Shown: positions 2,895-63,343 of the stretch, piece by piece
Layout: each line of letters opens with the position of its first letter
Numbering within the stretch: position 1 is the first letter of the stretch
Source of the DNA: Candidatus Campbellbacteria bacterium
Lineage (GTDB): Bacteria > Patescibacteriota > Minisyncoccia > Phycocordibacterales > JABAAK01
Reading direction: 5' to 3'
DNA length: 64,000 nucleotides
Assembly: GCA_028817035.1 (NCBI GenBank)
Contig: JAPPQH010000015.1
Coordinates: 1,895-65,894, forward strand
Made by a program: the position numbers and the translations under genes
Notes under the pieces: generated by a model
Databases searched by the model: none
The model's input: the letters and a program-made list of their open reading frames with translations, nothing else
What the model was told of the DNA's origin: nothing

Positions 2895-2995
2895 AATACA
2901 CCCCACTGTTTTCTTTACCGCACAGCCAATCTGCACAGCTAATATTAAAAGTTAGCATATAGTATAAAATTTGTCAAACACATTCTTTAGGCAAC

Positions 2996-3021
2996 AAAAA
3001 AACCACGCCTACGCGTGGTTT
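2996..3021 (-). terminator. Minus-strand intrinsic terminator (stem aaaccacgc / gcgtggttt, 4-nt loop, U7 tail). Unit 1 of a tandem family
   Basis: Perfect 9-bp stem. On the minus strand it is followed by ttttttt. Near-identical copy at 3212-3237. Confidence 0.5.
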
Positions 3022-3211
3022 CAAAATAAAAATATAGAGGTGGAGAAGAAAGGTCGCAGAGCATGTGCTCCGTACCCAAGGAGGAGGCACGACCCACCTC
3101 TCCACAATAGAGAGAAAACTCGTAGAATACCAACACGACTTCTCCCCCATTCAAAGGAATAACCCTTCAAACATTAAAATTGTATAGTACACAAAAATAT
3201 CCGTCAACAAC

Positions 3212-3237
3212 AAAAAAACCACGCCTATGCGTGGTTT
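3212..3237 (-). terminator. Minus-strand intrinsic terminator, copy 2 (aaaccacgcctatgcgtggttt + U-run)
   Basis: Differs from copy 1 by one loop base. Flanked by a similar ggtggag...ctccacc long-range complementarity. Confidence 0.5.
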
Positions 3238-3472
3238 CAAAATAAATGGTGGAGGGAGAGGAGCTATGTCACCGCATGGCGAACCATGCGTAATGCCGTA
3301 CACAACCCATCCCCTCCACGCACCGCTAACGAAACGACATGGATAACTCCTGCAGAAGGAGGACCACATTGCTTCATTTATTATGATATACCCTGCTAAA
3401 ATATCTGTCAATATCCAGATTCTCTCAAGGTCAGATTTATAATCAATCACTCTATCCCCCACTTTTAGTATT

Positions 3473-3546
3473 AAAAAAAGGGATTGCAATTATCAGCACC
3501 ATGCCTTCATTGGTAGATGAGGTCTAAAACCAACAACCGCAATCCC
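3473..3546 (-). other. Long imperfect hairpin (gggattgc...gcaatccc) followed on the minus strand by a T7 run. Possible third minus-strand terminator or the 3' end of a small RNA
   Basis: 8-bp closing stem read directly. A-run 3473-3479 on the plus strand is a U-run on the minus strand. Confidence 0.3.
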
Positions 3547-4082
3547 TTGGCTTTAGTGTAGGACTCCCGATTGCAATAAAAGATTGTACCTACGAGCCAA
3601 TAATAACATTACACCAATTATCTCTTTTTGTCCACTTCTCTATTTACTACTTATTCTCCTATCTAAATTAGTTTTGTATAAAAATTTAGAGGGCCCTGGA
3701 GACTGACGGGATTTCTCCCATCAAATCTCCAAGACCCAAGGGGGTTATGCAAACCGTTGATCGCGTGGCCACGCTACTCCAGCTTCCCCTGGAGCTTTAG
3801 GGCAGCTAGCCATTTGACTAACTGTGGTTTCAAACCAACGGTCTGCGAGGTCGGTCAGTACTAACCGAACCCTAATATATATGGTATACCAAGTCGCAAG
3901 ATTTGTCAACCCCCAGGGCTCGCGAAATCCAACTCATAAATTCGTTGCGGTCAGACTCACATCCCACAACCTATTCCGCTCCCCTGCTCACCCATCTCTT
4001 CCGCCCCATAAAATATAGGGCTATATGTCCGTGTACATACGTATGTACACGAACCTCCCCAAAATGCCTTATTTTGTGTAAA

Positions 4083-4323
4083 AAATGTTTCACGTGAAAC
4101 ATGTATGTACACATACACCCCCCAAAAGTGTGGAAAAGATGTTTCACGTGAAACATGTATGTGTACATACCCCCTAAATTTCCTTATTTTTTGGTGATGG
4201 GATGTTTCACGTGAAACATGTCTGTGTACATACCTCTCAAAAGCTGTGGAAAAGATGTTTCACGTGAAACATGTCTGTGTACATACCTCTCAAAAACTGT
4301 GGAAAAGATGTTTCACGTGAAAC
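4083..4323. repeat. Tandem array (4 full units of 52-65 bp plus 1 partial). Each unit begins with the perfect 18-bp palindrome ATGTTTCACGTGAAACAT followed by GT(A/C)TGTGTACATAC. Three inter-palindrome segments carry TGTGGAAAA, which is one mismatch from a DnaA box. It is not a CRISPR array
   Basis: Palindromes at 4085, 4138, 4202, 4254 and 4306. The inter-palindrome segments resemble each other (aaaagctgtggaaaag / aaaaactgtggaaaag), so they are not unique spacers. Confidence 0.9.
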
Positions 4324-4370
4324 ATTGACTGTTGATAAATGGTGTGTTGTTAGTGCAAAATATATGTGAT

Positions 4371-4745
4371 ATGGTTAATAATATGTTTATAACAAGCAAA
4401 GAAATCGGGATTATAGGTGAAAATATCGCCTGTAGATATCTCACCAAAAAGAAGTATAAAATAATAGAGAGGAACTATAGAAAAAAATGCGGAGAGATAG
4501 ACATAATCGCAGAGAAGGATGACATCATATATTTTTTTGAGGTGAAAACTAATGAATTATCAAATAACTATATCAGACCAGAGGAAAGAATCACCCCCAA
4601 AAAACTCAGAAAAATAAAAATGACCGCTGAACTTTATCAGCTTGAAAAAAAGATAGAAAAAGATGTGGGCGTAAGATCAATCTCTGTTCTGATAGATGTG
4701 GAAGGGAAGGAGGCAAAAGTGTATATGCTAAAAAATATTTTATGA
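4371..4745 (+). CDS. yraN: YraN-family (UPF0102) PD-(D/E)xK endonuclease-like protein
   Basis: GEDIAxxYL...ERNYRxxxGEIDIIAxxxxxxxFxEVKT motif pattern typical of UPF0102. About 125 aa from the ATG at 4371. The ORF track begins at an upstream TTG (4332). Confidence 0.65.
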   Translation: MVNNMFITSKEIGIIGENIACRYLTKKKYKIIERNYRKKCGEIDIIAEKDDIIYFFEVKTNELSNNYIRPEERITPKKLRKIKMTAELYQLEKKIEKDVGVRSISVLIDVEGKEAKVYMLKNIL

Positions 4746-4774: not shown

Positions 4775-4847
4775 CGGGGAATGGTGTAACGGCTAACATT
4801 CTCGCTTTGGGAGCGAGCGACTCCGGGTTCGAATCCCGGTTCCCCGA
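4775..4847 (+). tRNA. tRNA-Pro (anticodon TGG)
   Basis: Acceptor CGGGGAA/TTCCCCG, anticodon stem CTCGC/GCGAG with loop TTTGGGA, T-arm CCGGG-TTCGAAT-CCCGG. Confidence 0.85.
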
Positions 4848-4892
4848 CATTAAATTATTACTTAATAGGGAAGAAGGCAGGAACTTTTTATT
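4832..4892. repeat. 61-bp direct repeat copy 1. It includes the last 16 nt of tRNA-Pro (att-like)
   Basis: aatcccggttccccgacattaaattattacttaatagggaagaaggcaggaactttttatt is identical at 4996-5056. Confidence 0.85.
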
Positions 4893-7129: not shown

Positions 7130-9523
7130 ATGGAAAAACCTAAATTTAGAGGAGCAGATAGGAGGGGAACATCTATTTTAGAATCATCCCGAGAAAAAGA
7201 AATTTTGAAAAACTTTTCTCCAGAGGAAGCTAAGATTATAAAAGATAGAAAAAGTGTATTGTCAGCCTTGGGGTATTTCATAGGAAAAAATTTCTCTATG
7301 CCGATTGTTTTAGGATTGCCAAGTGAATCAAATCCGAGTGGTTGGCATTGGGGTAAGGCGAATGGAGAAAGTTATATACAAATAAACGCGAAAGATTTAC
7401 TGGAGAAACCCATGGATTATTTGCGTTATCTTATTTCTCACGAAGGTGGGCATGAGCGAGTTTCCAGAGTAGGATTTATACCTCCTGAAGAATGGAAACA
7501 GCCTGGTTTTGCTCTTATGATGAACTCCATTGAAGATCCCAGAATGAACAACTTTGTCGCAGAGGCATATCCTCCAATTCGAGGATTGATGCATAAAGTT
7601 TATAAAGAAGAGTTTGGATCTGAAAAGAAGGGTGAGGAGCTTGCAAAGCAAACTTTAGGTTTTCAACCACTACATGCCCAAGCTTCTAGTGAATATATAA
7701 AACAATGGATGAGGCAAGAAAAAGGGCGGGACTTTAAGATAGACGGGGGTTTGCCAAAAGAAGTGAAAGATGTTGTCAGAAAAACTCTATCATCAGCTGC
7801 TCGTTCATGGAGGCTTTTTCCAACCAAAGATATGGCTGATGGAAAAGAATATGATGAGCTGGGATCAACGGGCGAAGAGTCCATCGTCCAACACGCCCGT
7901 GCATCCTATGAAGTAAATAAAAATGAAATTTGGCCAGAATTCAGAAAATTAATTGCTCAAGATATTGAAGATCAAAAAATACAGGAAACCATACAAGATA
8001 TGAAAAATCAAAAAGGGCATGGGCAAGAACAAGCAGAAGAGCAAGAACAACAGCAAGGACAGGGAGGTGGACAAGGACAACAGCAGGAGCAAGAACAACA
8101 GCAAGGACAGGGAGGTGGACAAGGACAACAGCAGGAGCAAGAACAACAGCAAGGACAGGGAGGTGGACAAGGACAACAGCAGGAGCAAGAACAACAGCAA
8201 GGACAGGGAGGAGAAGGACAACAGCAGGAGCAGGGTGGTGCGTGCGCTGGGGGGCAATCACCAAGTATTCCCCAAAAATTAAAAGACAATCTTTCTTCTG
8301 AAGAACAAAGAGATTTAGAAAATGCCATCAATAACTCTCTTGGGCAGTCTGGGGAGGAGGGGCAGGGTGAAAGTAAAAATATCACACCAGTTCCCCTTGA
8401 CTCATTGTCAGAAGAATTAAAACAAAAAATAAGAGAATACATTGAGTCATTGCCCGAAGGCGAAAGAAGAGAGATTGAAGAAAGGGCAAGACAAGCCATA
8501 AAGGAATTTAATGATGCTTTAAATAAAGAGCTGGAGGGTAAGTTAACCAAAAATCCAGAAGAGATAGAGGCTGAACAAAAAGAACAGCAAGCACAAGCAC
8601 AAGAAACCCAAGAACAAGCAGAAGAGCAAGAACAACAGCAGGGACAGGGAGGAGTACAAGGACAACAGCAGGGGCAAGGACAGGAACAGCAAGAACAGCA
8701 AGAGCAAGTGCAAATATATGATGACACCGAAGGCGAACCATCCGAAAACAATGCTGCTAACCAAGAACCAGAAAAACACACTACCAGAAGGTGGAGAGAA
8801 CATTTTCGCCAAGATTTTCATGAGGATATGAATGCATATAGAGAATATCGCCAAAATTTATTAGCACTTATTAATAAAACAAAAAATGATTTTAAGCGCA
8901 TATTGATACCACAAAAGAGTACTTGGCAAGAGGGGCATAAGGTAGGAGGTAGAATCAATATCGGTCGACGCATTCAAGAAAAAGCAAAGGGTATTTCGGT
9001 AGTGGAAAGCAAGGCGTGGCAAAGAAGAGAACATCCAAAAAAAAATAGATATGCAATCTCTCTGCTGGTTGATTTGTCAGGCTCTATGTGGGGAAGAAGT
9101 ATCGAAGAAACCTTTAAATCAGTTATTGTGCTTGTTAATGTCTTGAACAGCTTGGGAATTAATACAGAAGTGCTTGGTTTTAATGATGAATTGAGTGAAT
9201 ATCAAAATTTTGGACAGCCAATGTCAGAAGAGGTAAGAGAAAAAATAAGCGGAATGATTCAAGCAGCTGACGGAGGAACTAATGTTTATCGTGCAACAGA
9301 TATTGCTTTGGAACGGCTCTCAAAACAAAGAGAAGAACAAAAGATGTTGATAACTCTCAGCGACGTTGAATTATCTGAACTACAGGATCTTGTAGAAGAA
9401 AAAGAGAAAACGCTTAAAAACACAAATATTACCCACATAGATATTGGTACGGTTGATGGCAAGACCGTTGGGGAAATTATAGAAAACATAAAAAAATTGA
9501 TTGAGAAAGAAAAGACAACATAA
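7130..9523 (+). CDS. Multidomain protein with three parts. N-terminal putative zincin-like metallopeptidase domain (HEGGHE = HExxH). Central Q/G/E-rich low-complexity linker with perfect tandem repeats. C-terminal von Willebrand A domain with a DxSGS MIDAS motif. Resembles the DUF2201_N + vWA architecture that pairs with MoxR-like ATPases
   Basis: LISHEGGHERV; (EQEQQQGQGGGQGQQQ)x3.7; vWA region LLVDLSGSMWG...GGTNVYRATDIA...LITLSDVE. Confidence 0.7.
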   Translation: MEKPKFRGADRRGTSILESSREKEILKNFSPEEAKIIKDRKSVLSALGYFIGKNFSMPIVLGLPSESNPSGWHWGKANGESYIQINAKDLLEKPMDYLRYLISHEGGHERVSRVGFIPPEEWKQPGFALMMNSIEDPRMNNFVAEAYPPIRGLMHKVYKEEFGSEKKGEELAKQTLGFQPLHAQASSEYIKQWMRQEKGRDFKIDGGLPKEVKDVVRKTLSSAARSWRLFPTKDMADGKEYDELGSTGEESIVQHARASYEVNKNEIWPEFRKLIAQDIEDQKIQETIQDMKNQKGHGQEQAEEQEQQQGQGGGQGQQQEQEQQQGQGGGQGQQQEQEQQQGQGGGQGQQQEQEQQQGQGGEGQQQEQGGACAGGQSPSIPQKLKDNLSSEEQRDLENAINNSLGQSGEEGQGESKNITPVPLDSLSEELKQKIREYIESLPEGERREIEERARQAIKEFNDALNKELEGKLTKNPEEIEAEQKEQQAQAQETQEQAEEQEQQQGQGGVQGQQQGQGQEQQEQQEQVQIYDDTEGEPSENNAANQEPEKHTTRRWREHFRQDFHEDMNAYREYRQNLLALINKTKNDFKRILIPQKSTWQEGHKVGGRINIGRRIQEKAKGISVVESKAWQRREHPKKNRYAISLLVDLSGSMWGRSIEETFKSVIVLVNVLNSLGINTEVLGFNDELSEYQNFGQPMSEEVREKISGMIQAADGGTNVYRATDIALERLSKQREEQKMLITLSDVELSELQDLVEEKEKTLKNTNITHIDIGTVDGKTVGEIIENIKKLIEKEKTT
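8042..8230 (+). repeat. Perfect 48-bp tandem repeat (about 3.7 copies) inside the vWA-protein gene. It encodes the 16-aa unit EQEQQQGQGGGQGQQQ. A diverged copy lies at about 8600-8700
   Basis: caagaacaacagcaaggacagggaggtggacaaggacaacagcaggag is repeated head-to-tail without mismatches. Confidence 0.9.
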
Positions 9524-9970: not shown

Positions 9971-12190
9971 ATGAAAATTATTAGGTCACAAGAAAAATTG
10001 GCTAAGGCAAGAAATGAAGTATCGGAAGCATCAACGCCAACAAAAAATCCGACATTGGGAAACTTGGATGGATTTAAAGAAGTGAGAGCAAGGTTAAGAG
10101 GTACCCCTGTAGAAGAAATGCTCACAAGCGTCTCTTACAGTGGTGTAAAGTTAGAAAAAGCTAAAGACCAAACAGGCGTTTGGGTCCCAAGGCGAGAAGA
10201 GTTTAAATTTTATGTTAATAGCAATCATTCTCTAAGATTACAAAAAGATATTGCTACAGCTTGGAGGTTAAGGCAGTCTATGCTTATTGAAGCAGGGACA
10301 TCTTATGGAAAAACTACAACTATTGAAAAAATGTGTGCCGAACTTGGGTATGAATATCACTATGTAAATCTCCATGAACAAATAGATGTAGAAAATTTCA
10401 TGGGTCGTTATATCCCCAACATAAATCGTAAAACAGAAAATGATCCAGAATATGTGTTTAAGTATGGACCTGTTTCAAGGGGTTTGATACAGGAAGAAGG
10501 CAAGGTGAAAGTGATAGTGCTTGACGAAATAAACACCGTAGAAGGTGGGGTTTTAAAAAGATTAAATGAAGTGCTTAATGCTGTTGAACGAAGCGGAACA
10601 GTAACTCTTACTGAAGATTCCTCAGAACAAATCCATGTCGACCGAGAAAAAACGATAATTATTGGCACAATGAATCCCAGTGGTGAGGACTATCATAGCA
10701 CAAAGCCTCTTTCCAAAGAGCTCATTAACCGTTTTTTATATAAGAAACTTGAAAAAATGACGGAAGAAGACATACATTCTATTATCATGACAATAAACGG
10801 CTTTTCGCATCACAACAACAGAGAAGAGGAACTTGCGATGGAAGCATATAAAGAAATTCCTGGTATAAAAGAAATGATTGAAAAATATGCAGAATTCCAT
10901 ATTGCTGTCCAAAAACTCTTGGAAAAAGGAGAATTGGCTACAGATCAAGATCAAAAAATTGTTTTTGACACTCATCGCGAACCTGAACGAATCAAAGAGC
11001 ATATAGCAGAATTCTATACAGGAGATATTAATGAAACAATGCAAGATGCATTGGACTTTACTTACCTGGGCAGATTATCTTCTAAAGAAGACAAAGAAAA
11101 AGTGAAAGAGTTGGCAAAGGTTGTCCGAGTAGAGATCAAGCCCAAAATATCTCAACGCCAAGGTCTTGAGAAAGCAGAAGTAGAGGGCAGGGATGCTGCA
11201 GAGTTTTTGGGTAAGTTCATTAATGTTCTTGATAATAATCCTAATCTAATAGATTCAATACATTGGAATTGGCATATTACCAACGAAGGTCATGTGGACA
11301 TGAAGGTTGGGGTATCCGATCTGAAAGAACTTGGTATAAATATAGATATTGATGCAATAGAAGGGTCAGACCAACCAATCTCATCATCCGTCAAGGAAGG
11401 TATGGGCATCAAAAACCTAATAAAGGAATTGGAAGGTAAGAATGTTCTCTCTGTAAGAACTGGAGATAATTGGAGGTTAAAAATCCTCCCAAAAGAATAT
11501 GGGGAACAAGAGGACAAAATAGGGCAAGAAATACTAAAAAAAGTAGGAGGCAGAGATCCGCAGATTTTGAATAAAATGTTTTCCAATCGAGAGCTTAAAA
11601 AGAATTTTGGTAAACAACATGATAGAGAAACTATTAAATGGATTTTTGGAAAAAGAGGGTTTATAGGGGTTCATGCTTTGGGCTTGGCTAAGTATGTGGA
11701 TAAAAACTATATTGATATGGCAACATCATATGATATAGGAGCAGAACAATACAGATCACAAGGTGTAGACCCCATGCTGAGGGTGATAGGAGACAGAAAG
11801 GTTGCTCTTTTAAATAATAAAAATATTTTTCAAATAAAAATCCTTCCAGAAAGTATATTTGATGAAATGCTTGGCCAAGGTTCTGGAAAGTTTCTGAAAA
11901 AGGTTGGTAAGATTTTCCCAAAAGATACTTTAGAAAAGTTTTCGTGGACGATTACCAACAAGGGTTTTGTGGATATGAAATGTAGTATAAAAACTCTGAA
12001 ATCTATGGGTGGAAGTGTTGATAAAGAAGTAAGTTACTTGCACAACCCAGAAAATGGAGAACCGTATGAGGAGCACTTTGGAGAGATACGCTCAACGGGT
12101 GAGGGTATAGGACCTCTGGGATCTGACTTATTGAATAAAAAAGTTGTCTCTTTAAATAGTAATGGTAACTGGGTATTAAAAATCCTTTAG
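9971..12190 (+). CDS. AAA_5 / MoxR-like AAA+ ATPase (N-terminal about 240 aa). The C-terminal about 500-aa extension contains an internal duplication of a module of roughly 110 aa
   Basis: Walker A AGTSYGKTT, Walker B VIVLDEIN, sensor IIIGTMNP. Repeats WHITNEGHVDMKVGVSDLKELG / WTITNKGFVDMKCSIKTLKSMG and LSVRTGDNWRLKILP / VSLNSNGNWVLKIL. Confidence 0.75.
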   Translation: MKIIRSQEKLAKARNEVSEASTPTKNPTLGNLDGFKEVRARLRGTPVEEMLTSVSYSGVKLEKAKDQTGVWVPRREEFKFYVNSNHSLRLQKDIATAWRLRQSMLIEAGTSYGKTTTIEKMCAELGYEYHYVNLHEQIDVENFMGRYIPNINRKTENDPEYVFKYGPVSRGLIQEEGKVKVIVLDEINTVEGGVLKRLNEVLNAVERSGTVTLTEDSSEQIHVDREKTIIIGTMNPSGEDYHSTKPLSKELINRFLYKKLEKMTEEDIHSIIMTINGFSHHNNREEELAMEAYKEIPGIKEMIEKYAEFHIAVQKLLEKGELATDQDQKIVFDTHREPERIKEHIAEFYTGDINETMQDALDFTYLGRLSSKEDKEKVKELAKVVRVEIKPKISQRQGLEKAEVEGRDAAEFLGKFINVLDNNPNLIDSIHWNWHITNEGHVDMKVGVSDLKELGINIDIDAIEGSDQPISSSVKEGMGIKNLIKELEGKNVLSVRTGDNWRLKILPKEYGEQEDKIGQEILKKVGGRDPQILNKMFSNRELKKNFGKQHDRETIKWIFGKRGFIGVHALGLAKYVDKNYIDMATSYDIGAEQYRSQGVDPMLRVIGDRKVALLNNKNIFQIKILPESIFDEMLGQGSGKFLKKVGKIFPKDTLEKFSWTITNKGFVDMKCSIKTLKSMGGSVDKEVSYLHNPENGEPYEEHFGEIRSTGEGIGPLGSDLLNKKVVSLNSNGNWVLKIL

Positions 12191-60806: not shown

Positions 60807-63047
60807 CTACTCCTTATCAGCCAAAATCTCCCTCGGCTTTGACCCCTGCTGAGGCCCTATAACCCCCCTATCCTCCAACATATCCATCAACCTCGCAGCC
60901 CGCGAATAACCAACCTTAAGCCGCCTTTGCAAAAGAGAAGTAGAAGCCTTTCCCGCACTTACAACAACCTCCCTCGCATCATTATACAAATCATCCTCAT
61001 CATCACCCCCACCATCACCAAAACCACCAAGACCAGCACCACCACCACCACCACCACTACCACCACCCTCAACATCATCAGCAACCATTATATCGCTTAT
61101 AGCCGCATCATTATTCTTCACTATATTACTCACAACACTCTTAACCTCCGCCTCCCTCACATACGCCGCCTGCAACCTCTCCGACTTCGCCATCTCACCA
61201 GATATAAAAAGCAAATCACCAGCACCCAACAACTTCTCAGCACCAGCACTATCAATAATAGTCCGCGAATCTATCTGCGAAGAAACCTGCAACGCAATCC
61301 TTGACGGAATATTAGCCTTTATCAACCCAGTTATAACATTTACAGAAGGCCTTTGCGTAGAAAGTATTATATGTATCCCAACCGCCCTACTCATCTGCGC
61401 CAAACGGACAATAGCACCCTCAAGCTCCCTCGGATACGCCTGCATAAGATCCGCCAACTCATCCACCACCACAACCACATACGGCAAAATCTTACCCCTC
61501 TTAGAAGAATTATAAGAAGCAATATCCCTCGCCTTAGCACTCTGCAAAACATCATACCTCCTCTCCATCTCCTTTGTCGCCCAAATCAAAGAAGCAACCG
61601 CCTTCTTAGGAGAAGTAATAACATCAGTAAGCAAATGAGGAATACCATCATACAAAGTAAGCTCAACCCTCTTAGGATCAACCAAAATAAACCTAAGCTC
61701 CTTCGGCGAATGCCTATACAACAAAGAAAGCAATATATTATGTATAACAACCGACTTCCCAGACCCAGTAGTCCCCGCCACCAATATATGAGGCATCTTC
61801 GCCACACTAACAATCTTAGTCCCACCCTCAATATCCTTACCCACAACTATAGGCAAAGGATCACCAAACGCCTTAAACTTCTCAGAAGCAATCATAGAAC
61901 CAAGCCCAACAGTCGCCTTCTTCGTATTTGGCACCTCAATACCAACCAAAGACCTACCAGGAATAGGCGCCTCAATACGGACAGGATGAGCCGCCAAAGT
62001 CAGCTCCAAATTATTCTGCAACGCCAAAATTTTTGAAAGACGAACCCCCTCAGCAGGCTTCAACGCAAACCTTGTAATAGACGGACCCACAGAAACCTCC
62101 TCAACATCAATATCAATACCAAAATTATCAAAAGTCCTCACCAAAGTATTCGCCTGCGCCTTAATATCACCACCAGACGAAGCACCCTTATCAGTCTTAA
62201 GCAAAGACAAAGGAGGGAAATTATACGGCGCATCCGAAACCTCAATCTCAGACAAAACAGGAGTCCTCACAGGCGCACCACCACCACCATCACCATCACC
62301 AGCACCCTCTTCCTCCTCATCACCCTCCTCATCACCCTCCTCAACATCATCCTCCTCATCCTCACCTTCCTCCTCATCACCCTCACCCTCAACATCCTCC
62401 TCCTCACCCTCACCCAACTCCTCACCATCTTCCTCATCCTCATCCTCATCACCATCACCACCAATAACCTTAAAATCCTCCGCCCTCTCCTTCTTATTCT
62501 TCCAATCAGTAACATACGCAGCAAGCGTAGGATAAAGCATAACAATAAAACCAGTAATAAAAACAACCAACAAAATAGGCAACGCAAAATAAAGTTCAAA
62601 CAAATACACCAACAAGTTTGCAATACCACCACCAACAACACCACCAACAAAAGGACCAACCAAAAGCGAAAGCAAACCTATAAAAGAAACAAACGCAACC
62701 ACACCACCAACAACACAACGAACTGAAAAAAACTTTGAAGTCTCCTGCTTAGCAATAACATAAATAAAAAACGCAATTATAAAAACCAAAACCCAATAAC
62801 CCTTACCAAACGCACTATCAAGAAAAGAAAAAGAAAACTCACCAACAGGACCCGCCCTACCAAACGCAGCCAAAACCAAAAAAATTAAAACAAGAGTAAG
62901 AACAATAGAACTAATAACCGCCCTCTCAGCATCAGAAAGAGAATTAATAGATTGTTTAATCAAATTACAACAACCACCACAAAACCTACACACAAAACCC
63001 ACCAACCCAGAACCAGATTTATTGGTATTTTTCCTTGACCGTCTCAT
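60807..63047 (-). CDS. ftsK: DNA translocase FtsK/SpoIIIE with TM N-domain, long acidic D/E/G low-complexity linker, motor domain and gamma domain
   Basis: VAGTTGSGKSV Walker A, FILVDPKRVEL, and C-terminal winged-helix gamma. ATG at 63047 chosen. Confidence 0.85.
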   Translation of the reverse strand: MRRSRKNTNKSGSGLVGFVCRFCGGCCNLIKQSINSLSDAERAVISSIVLTLVLIFLVLAAFGRAGPVGEFSFSFLDSAFGKGYWVLVFIIAFFIYVIAKQETSKFFSVRCVVGGVVAFVSFIGLLSLLVGPFVGGVVGGGIANLLVYLFELYFALPILLVVFITGFIVMLYPTLAAYVTDWKNKKERAEDFKVIGGDGDEDEDEEDGEELGEGEEEDVEGEGDEEEGEDEEDDVEEGDEEGDEEEEGAGDGDGGGGAPVRTPVLSEIEVSDAPYNFPPLSLLKTDKGASSGGDIKAQANTLVRTFDNFGIDIDVEEVSVGPSITRFALKPAEGVRLSKILALQNNLELTLAAHPVRIEAPIPGRSLVGIEVPNTKKATVGLGSMIASEKFKAFGDPLPIVVGKDIEGGTKIVSVAKMPHILVAGTTGSGKSVVIHNILLSLLYRHSPKELRFILVDPKRVELTLYDGIPHLLTDVITSPKKAVASLIWATKEMERRYDVLQSAKARDIASYNSSKRGKILPYVVVVVDELADLMQAYPRELEGAIVRLAQMSRAVGIHIILSTQRPSVNVITGLIKANIPSRIALQVSSQIDSRTIIDSAGAEKLLGAGDLLFISGEMAKSERLQAAYVREAEVKSVVSNIVKNNDAAISDIMVADDVEGGGSGGGGGGAGLGGFGDGGGDDEDDLYNDAREVVVSAGKASTSLLQRRLKVGYSRAARLMDMLEDRGVIGPQQGSKPREILADKE

Positions 63048-63343
63048 ATATACTATAAAAATTATGATAACACGAAAATGGCGATATATTGTGTATATAG
63101 TCAATAAATAAAGGTATTTTCCACAACCACAAGACAAACCGAACTATATATGCTATAAAATAACACTAAGGGTACTCATACTCATTTTTTTATGGGTTTG
63201 CGTTCCCATCCTTAGAGTTATGTTTTTTAAATATAAAACTAAGGAAGACTTGATTAGTAGTTGTGTTTTGAAAATTTATTTTCAAAAAAAATAAATTTTT
63301 ATTTCACATCTTAAAACTTAACAAGTAACAGTCATAATCGATT

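Follow-up and report, generated by a model that had tools for sequence, protein, structure and literature searches.

A tandem array of five perfect parS sites was found directly upstream of yraN on the chromosome of Candidatus Campbellbacteria (Parcubacteria, CPR), an ultra-small bacterium. Probably, the array is a centromere with several loading sites for ParB, binds DnaA as well and originated from the tandem duplication of DnaA boxes together with one parS site. Judged by its sequence, the repeated palindrome equals the canonical centromere site parS; the element is thus of a known kind, found here in an unusual layout. The tandem arrangement, the abutting DnaA box and the conserved link to yraN in Parcubacteria are the novel aspects, the parS centromere itself being known. 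The window, as we call the whole 64-kb stretch of DNA that was analysed, reads in the reverse direction of a 141-kb metagenomic scaffold.

The initial annotation of the array took the palindromes to be sites for a dimeric DNA-binding protein, noticed the likeness of adjoining motifs to DnaA boxes and set the array apart from CRISPR and REP elements. In these respects it was correct, ParB being the predicted binding protein. It missed the identity with parS, and none of the three readings that it offered (operator array, iterons of a replication origin, oriC-like element) names the function that is best supported here.

Layout of the array

All five 18-bp copies of ATGTTTCACGTGAAACAT are exact matches, as had been described, and the array ends at position 4325 instead of 4323 (Table 1). 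The dispersal expected of a generic REP-like element was not seen, since a further match to ATGTTTCACGTGAAACAT with up to three mismatches is absent from the 64-kb window (chance expectation 0.02). Analysis with Tandem Repeats Finder yielded a period of 53 bp across positions 4075–4325, with the last 2.4 units being 98% identical. The recurrence noted previously is thus real, and its spacing of 52–65 bp is corrected to start-to-start distances of 54, 63, 53 and 53 bp. The pitch of 63 bp in unit 2 is due to a different and longer spacer, which is similar to that of the partial leading unit.

The order of elements within a unit is TGTG(G/T)AAAA, 1 bp, the 18-mer, GT(A/C)TGTGTACATAC (present as reverse complement after copy 1) and a C-rich spacer. 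The claim that GT(A/C)TGTGTACATAC follows each palindrome applies to copies 2–4; copy 1 is followed by GTATGTACACATAC and copy 5 by the yraN promoter region. The partial sixth unit that had been suspected upstream does exist and carries the accessory motifs without a parS site. Its motif CGTGTACATACGTATGTACACG is a perfect 22-bp palindrome of alternating purines and pyrimidines at positions 4030–4051.

The accessory near-palindrome GTATGTACACATAC has further copies at positions 4157–4170, 4220–4233 and 4273–4286, all in the orientation opposite to that of the first copy. As it is absent as a conserved motif in the closest relative (L209), a function of this element is doubtful. TGTACA-type palindromes of alternating purines and pyrimidines were also considered as a second conserved protein site and were rejected for lack of conservation in the same relative. 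The alternating tracts at 4030–4051, 4099–4118 and 4153–4170 (22, 20 and 18 nt) are three of the four longest in the window and could be flexible or prone to form Z-DNA, with the motif again not being conserved in L209.

Table 1 Features of the parS array and its downstream region (positions refer to the window; a dot marks features given without strand)
Feature	Position	Strand	Remarks
Partial leading unit	4025–4084	.	ATGTCCGTGTACATAC, CGTGTACATACGTATGTACACG, C-rich spacer, TGTGTAAAA; without parS
Related motif TGTGTAAAA	4075–4083		before parS copy 1
parS copy 1	4085–4102	.	core 16-mer TGTTTCACGTGAAACA at 4086–4101
Accessory near-palindrome GTATGTACACATAC	4103–4116	.	within alternating purine-pyrimidine tract
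DnaA-box-like motif TGTGGAAAA	4129–4137	-	2 bp from parS core
parS copy 2	4139–4156	.	
parS copy 3	4202–4219	.	sole copy without preceding DnaA-box-like motif
DnaA-box-like motif TGTGGAAAA	4245–4253	-	2 bp from parS core
parS copy 4	4255–4272	.	
DnaA-box-like motif TGTGGAAAA	4298–4306	-	2 bp from parS core; conserved in L209
parS copy 5	4308–4325	.	ends 6 bp ahead of -35-like TTGATA of the yraN promoter
Motif TGTTGATAA	4330–4338	-	one mismatch from TGTGGATAA; overlaps -35-like hexamer
Promoter-like site of yraN	4332–4361	+	TTGATA, 18-bp spacer, CAAAAT; 9/12 positions, consensus match only
yraN	4371–4745	+	UPF0102 family, predicted nuclease, 124 aa; Pfam E = 6e-23; NCBI annotation from 4371
tRNA-Pro (tgg)	4775–4848	+	part of the conserved context

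Identity of the palindrome

The site parS is the universal bacterial centromere site and is bound by the chromosome-segregation protein ParB. In each of the five copies, the inner 16 bp read TGTTTCACGTGAAACA, which is the canonical chromosomal parS (ParB/Spo0J site) and agrees with the consensus TGTTNCACGTGAAACA. In the literature on ParB and parS, TGTTTCACGTGAAACA is used as parS site or consensus, including in a review (PMC7022226). The palindrome of 14–16 bp is perfectly conserved and identical to the pan-bacterial ParB site, from which we infer the existence of a ParB-type reader. A cognate ParB is accordingly assumed to be encoded in this organism.

DnaA-box-like motifs

Four of the five parS copies are abutted by the motif TGTG(G/T)AAAA, which is located 2 bp from the parS core and always has the same orientation. 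Read on the minus strand, TGTGGAAAA becomes TTTTCCACA and fits the relaxed consensus TTWTNCACA, which bears out its earlier description as a DnaA-box-like motif with one mismatch. The number (three) and the common orientation of the TGTGGAAAA motifs were also given correctly. Their pitch is 116 and 53 bp rather than 52 bp, and two further related motifs had been overlooked, namely TGTGTAAAA before the first parS copy and TGTTGATAA behind the last one. By eye, TGTTGATAA is the counterpart of the invariant DnaA box in the module found upstream of yraN in Parcubacteria (see below).

The motifs are enriched at the array. Of 17 matches to TTWTNCACA in the window, four lie in a stretch of 260 bp at the array, all in the same orientation, and are joined by a fifth box that deviates at one position. 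No cluster of DnaA boxes in the 64-kb window scores higher than the array (z = 7.5). Since the boxes were duplicated along with the repeat unit, their multiplicity is not independent evidence and the count alone is weak. Stronger support comes from the relatives: the box is kept in L209, perfect boxes occur in the homologous module of relatives, and a Parcubacteria MAG (L092) shows the same geometry of box, 2 bp and half-site. Among 558 parS sites from all the DNA retrieved, a box within 16 bp of parS is confined to this lineage, apart from two cases that seem to be due to chance.

The abutment of a relaxed DnaA box on four of five sites indicates that the locus probably also binds DnaA. With 2 bp between them, box and parS may be too close for ParB and DnaA to bind simultaneously. 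A composite of DnaA box and parS that is specific to one lineage would constitute a compact natural test case for the interplay of the two proteins. DnaA-trio motifs were inspected by eye as well; the result was not convincing and no claim is made.

Genomic context

NCBI assigns the MAG to Candidatus Campbellbacteria. The window contains a long block of ribosomal-protein-sized genes as well as nusA, tig, clpP, ppa, tpiA, pgk, recJ, recA, ftsK, nusG and rplK. This housekeeping gene content places the array in a chromosomal context. The gene downstream of the array belongs to the YraN family, as had been annotated, with the Pfam match listed in Table 1.

Genes coding for potential binding partners were searched in several steps. 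Pfam scans of about 50 ORFs of the window yielded no parA, parB, dnaA or rep gene, which is in line with the earlier statement that dnaA and rep are absent from it. None of the four genes was found in the 9 kb beyond the left end of the window or in the 5.6 kb between its right end and the end of the contig. For ParB and ParA, about 85 kb of the 141-kb contig were covered without a match. In 657 kb of yraN and dnaA loci from Parcubacteria, neither tblastn nor a profile HMM built from 60 seeds, the latter even at E = 10, matched a ParB, and no ParA gene was found there either. The empty ParB searches around these loci show only that parAB is unlinked to them. A dnaA gene is absent within about 20 kb on one side of the array and 69 kb on the other, so that proximity to the origin is unproven on this contig. 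With a DnaA query from Parcubacteria, no protein of this contig or of a 562-kb contig (JAXLZT010000001.1) was among the matches listed.

Several other features of the window were recorded. Immediately to the left of the array, positions 3640–3880 (minus strand) contain a candidate unannotated structured RNA, the transcription of which would lead away from the array. Its minimum free energy is -101 kcal/mol compared to -64 ± 5 kcal/mol after shuffling (z = -7.4), and none of 200 shuffled sequences reached its value. A promoter-like site at 3909–3881 (TTGACA, 17-bp spacer, TACCAT, 10/12 positions) precedes the candidate, which has no match in Rfam. Positions 3205–3345 and 2990–3135 (minus strand) form a paralogous pair, each member being a long imperfect hairpin followed by a terminator (z = -5.0 and -5.4). 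Both share one strong intrinsic terminator, AAACCACGC(A/G)TAGGCGTGGTTTTTTTG. An ORF of 112 aa at 3151–3489 overlaps these hairpins, lacks a Pfam match and is probably not a gene.

Further downstream, a VWA-domain protein (7130–9523) is followed by an AAA_5 (MoxR-like) ATPase (9971–12190). The VWA-domain protein contains a long low-complexity region rich in Q, G and E, which is derived from 48-bp tandem repeats (8020–8232). In ftsK (60807–63137, minus strand), the 5' third carries tandem DNA repeats rich in CAC and CCT at 60990–61077 and 62276–62460.

Conservation upstream of yraN in Parcubacteria

A YraN alignment scan of metagenomes yielded 80 loci, 70 of which included enough upstream DNA. 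A parS site with up to two mismatches is present within 700 bp upstream of yraN in 19 of these 70 metagenomic loci, and 10 of the 19 have a site with 0–1 mismatch located 40–150 bp upstream of the gene. A profile of the upstream module, about 200 bp in length, matches about 27 yraN loci. At the level of sequence, parS and DnaA boxes just upstream of yraN are a conserved non-coding module, which occurs at no fewer than 25 related loci in Parcubacteria.

The elements of the module are arranged as tRNA gene, TGTCCTTTA, several DnaA boxes in a row (TGTGGATAA-cta-TGTTAGTAA-TGTTTATAA) and AGGACA. Behind AGGACA, the order is GTCTTTTA ... TATAAAAGACA, parS ((T)GTTTCACGTGAAAC), a degenerate second parS (GTTACnTGTGAAAC) and yraN. 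In an alignment of 16 sequences, every position of the DnaA box TGTGGATAA is invariant or almost so. The same applies to most of the parS core GTTTCACGTGAAAC, and the flanks are variable in this alignment. Neither a consensus RNA structure or covariation nor an Rfam match was found for the module. An RNA element was rejected on these grounds, indicating that the module acts at the level of DNA.

The gene order PNPase, NYN, rpsO, xerC/D-like integrase, Exo_endo_phos, CCA-adding enzyme (minus strand), module and yraN (plus strand) is shared by this contig and four other contigs from Parcubacteria. In one relative (L207), yraN is located 3.4 kb from dnaA, and in a Lloydbacteria contig the distance is 12 kb. 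As a non-coding landmark, DnaA boxes and parS upstream of yraN could help to anchor the annotation of origins and centromeres in thousands of MAGs. Our literature searches found no relevant published work on parS, ParB or oriC in CPR bacteria, and parS/ParB is apparently undescribed for CPR/Patescibacteria.

Two additional observations were made on these loci. The module (positions 3675–3900 in L158 and about 26 other yraN loci) contains two inverted pairs of 9-mers, TGTCCTTTA...TAAAGGACA and TGTCTTTTA...TAAAAGACA, the members of which are about 70 bp apart and show no RNA covariation. Matches resembling parS (1–2 mismatches) also recur at fixed sites inside the yraN gene of relatives, at about +40 and at +152 to +179 from the start of the match. 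They were seen in L128, L131, L134, L140, L150, L167 and others, are absent from yraN of the window and may simply reflect conserved codons.

Copy-number variation and tandem arrays in other bacteria

Most relatives have one parS copy at the yraN locus. The closest relative, L209 (YraN 69% identical), has two units, each composed of TGTGGAAAA(C/G) and the 18-mer. Eight parS sites with yraN immediately downstream are present, at about 417.5 kb, on the complete chromosome of a Candidatus Paceibacterota member (L091, OZ241963.1, 661,662 bp). The MAG L092 features six parS sites at a pitch of 52 bp, interleaved with three perfect TTATCCACA boxes.

Variants of the site accompany both of the larger arrays. 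Positions 4440–4920 of L092 contain split palindromes, TGTTTCAC-N7-GTGAAACA, in which the parS half-sites are 7 bp apart. Each of them is located 2 bp from a perfect TTATCCACA, and parS units of 52 bp, three in a row, are arranged in alternation with them. In L091 (1440–1930), an extra half-site, GTGTTTCACATAGC(C/G)AC or GTGAAAC, precedes most parS sites of the eight-site array.

Outside this lineage, pairs of perfect parS sites 25–55 bp apart were detected in at least 120 species genomes from many phyla, and also in 56 viral or provirus contigs. Arrays of at least four sites are rarer (roughly ten of 120 loci, among the matches listed). In a Lachnospiraceae MAG (L055, 1014–1353), eight perfect sites directly precede parA-parB-DUF4446. 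A Rhodospirillales MAG (L105, 2221–2399) has five that separate gidA from gidB-parA, and a Bacilli MAG (L097, 5384–5894) has ten between dnaX and tadA/gyrA. All three arrays examined outside Parcubacteria are chromosomal. They indicate that tandem amplification of parS is a recurrent and little-noticed event that is not unique to the window; perfect parS sites can amplify into regular chromosomal tandem arrays in several phyla. Separately, a contig from a MAG labelled Nitrosopumilus sp. (L043, CAXQPB010000082.1) was found to contain four perfect parS sites of bacterial type and a ParB homologue. Their presence on a contig binned as archaeal might stem from a mobile element or from misbinning, or might represent a ParABS system that is genuinely archaeal.

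The variation in copy number raises the question whether all copies matter. It is unlikely, in our view, that a single site is functional and that the others arose neutrally by replication slippage, which would make the array a kind of minisatellite. The presence of two copies in L209 versus five here would fit such a process, as would the identity of 98% between units 3 and 4, which points to a recent duplication. However, older and younger units are only 70–72% identical, whereas all five 18-mers are 100% identical. Perfect 18-mers next to spacers that have drifted to about 70% argue for selection on each copy. Expansions that occurred independently in L091, in L092 and in three other phyla also speak against neutral slippage.

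Proposed function

The preferred reading of the array as a multi-site centromere follows the established ParABS model. According to this model, a ParB dimer would recognise each 16-bp palindrome, bind CTP and close into a clamp. The clamp would then slide onto neighbouring DNA and leave the site open to a further dimer. With five such sites in 240 bp, the loading rate would be expected to rise and one dense partition complex to form, on which ParA and/or SMC would act. Multiple sites may matter in an ultra-small cell with few ParB molecules. The data show the sequence identity with parS, its conservation, the variation in copy number and the enrichment of DnaA boxes; binding of ParB and DnaA, like any benefit of several copies, is what we infer.

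For DnaA, two roles are conceivable. The array could be a cluster that titrates DnaA or has a regulatory function. Alternatively, occupancy by ParB and by DnaA might influence each other and the adjacent yraN promoter. With regard to its origin, the array would have resulted from tandem duplication of an ancestral module, consisting of DnaA boxes and one parS site, which is situated upstream of yraN throughout Parcubacteria. If the array is simply a multi-site centromere, the outcome is a tidy annotation without surprise.

Rather unlikely, but more far-reaching, is that Campbellbacteria have merged a centromere and a DnaA-binding replication element into one unit (DnaA box, 2 bp, parS), on whose 30 bp ParB and DnaA would compete or cooperate. 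Either the array would then serve as the genuine origin, at a distance from dnaA, or it would be dedicated to regulating initiation and would link replication with segregation in a minimal cell.

Alternative functions

A primarily transcriptional role appears quite unlikely. In this case, the palindromes would form an operator array for the control of yraN, be it by ParB, by DnaA or by a different dimeric regulator. Across Parcubacteria, the association of parS and DnaA boxes with yraN is conserved, and the promoter region of yraN is about 90% identical to that of L209, compared to about 80% (estimated by eye) for the coding sequence. The last parS site ends 6 bp before the -35-like hexamer, which is overlapped by a DnaA-box-like motif, making an effect on yraN transcription plausible as a secondary one. 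Regulation of the downstream gene, as offered in the initial annotation, would be at most a side effect. A single site would suffice for repression, and most relatives do have one. The sequence is exactly the pan-bacterial centromere site and not a lineage-specific operator. In addition, chromosomal ParB usually affects neighbouring genes little (PMC7022226).

It is similarly improbable that the array is, or belongs to, oriC, with DnaA oligomerising on the repeated boxes and ParB marking the same spot. In favour of this reading, the array is the strongest cluster of DnaA boxes in the 64 kb, perfect boxes are conserved in the module of relatives and are interleaved with parS in L092, and the homologous locus is 3–12 kb from dnaA in two relatives. 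The flanking genes diverge from the array, and the cumulative GC skew has its minimum near position 4000. This minimum is uninformative on replication because the skew mirrors the coding strand across the window, with values of about +0.06 to +0.27 in blocks of plus-strand genes and -0.13 to -0.20 in blocks of minus-strand genes. The sign change at about 4000 coincides with the divergent gene orientation, and GC skew, proposed earlier as a check of the full contig, was discarded as evidence for an origin in the window.

Further results disfavour an origin. An AT-rich unwinding element is absent, as no 40-mer with at least 85% AT exists between 3400 and 4700. The AT content is 55% at 3490–4024, 62% in the array and 69% at 4326–4370, and the left flank is richer in GC than the average. 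Neither dnaA nor dnaN was found nearby, and for dnaA this holds out to about 20 kb in one direction and 69 kb in the other. The spacer between dnaA and dnaN is the classical position of oriC. In the Parcubacteria L207, L267 and L268, this spacer is the top cluster of degenerate boxes (joint-top in L207), with 7–9 boxes and z = 4–6. L267 and L268, which were scanned fully for parS, have no such site within 10 kb of dnaA. Of the oriC-like reading given earlier, the box cluster thus holds, and the unwinding element, the adjacency to dnaA/dnaN and an independent skew switch are missing.

An array of a mobile or guide-RNA system (plasmid iterons, CRISPR/TIGR or REP/MITE) is effectively refuted: the tandem arrangement of interspaced palindromes, the occurrence of TIGR arrays in Parcubacteria (PMC12045711, which also provided the TIGR feature set used for comparison) and nearby genes for an Mrr restriction-endonuclease-family protein and an xerC/D-like integrase would be compatible with it, but the spacers are alike (70–98%) and not variable, no cas or tas gene was found in the first ~22 kb of the window including the flanks of the array, no rep gene is nearby, no other copy of the palindrome exists in the 64 kb and the locus is syntenic across Parcubacteria. 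The earlier exclusion of CRISPR is thereby confirmed. Iterons of a plasmid origin, which had been offered as a candidate, are excluded by the chromosomal housekeeping neighbours and the absence of a rep gene.

Comparison with known systems

In well-studied chromosomes, parS occurs as single sites scattered over kilobases, often inside genes. The array resembles the ParABS systems of Bacillus subtilis, Caulobacter and others in the identical 16-bp site TGTTTCACGTGAAACA, in its chromosomal host and in the origin-proximal position of the locus in two relatives. It differs in having five perfect sites within 240 bp as a 53-bp tandem repeat, four of them abutted by a DnaA-box-like motif. Furthermore, parAB is not adjacent here and ParB was not found in the DNA searched.

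The centromere sopC of the F plasmid and similar plasmid centromeres consist of tandem head-to-tail units of about 40–55 bp, with one inverted-repeat site of ParB type each. The architecture of the repeat unit matches that of the array. In contrast, sopC has another site sequence and another protein (SopB), is part of a plasmid replicon and has units without DnaA boxes.

Cross-talk between partition and initiation proteins has been described previously. Soj/Spo0J acts on DnaA in B. subtilis, and direct contacts between ParB and DnaA were reported for V. cholerae and D. radiodurans (PMC7022226). In P. aeruginosa, a cluster of DnaA boxes outside oriC, oriCII, is located upstream of gidAB-parAB (PMC13438810). 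Both loci share DnaA boxes at a partition locus adjoining a promoter, and the array stands apart by boxes that are physically interleaved with parS at a distance of 2 bp.

A similar layout was seen for the arrays in L055, L105 and L097, which also feature 5–10 perfect parS sites at a regular pitch of 40–55 bp and are intergenic and chromosomal. Unlike the array upstream of yraN, they adjoin parA-parB (L055) or parA (L105) or lie among replication genes (L097), and they are without adjacent DnaA boxes.
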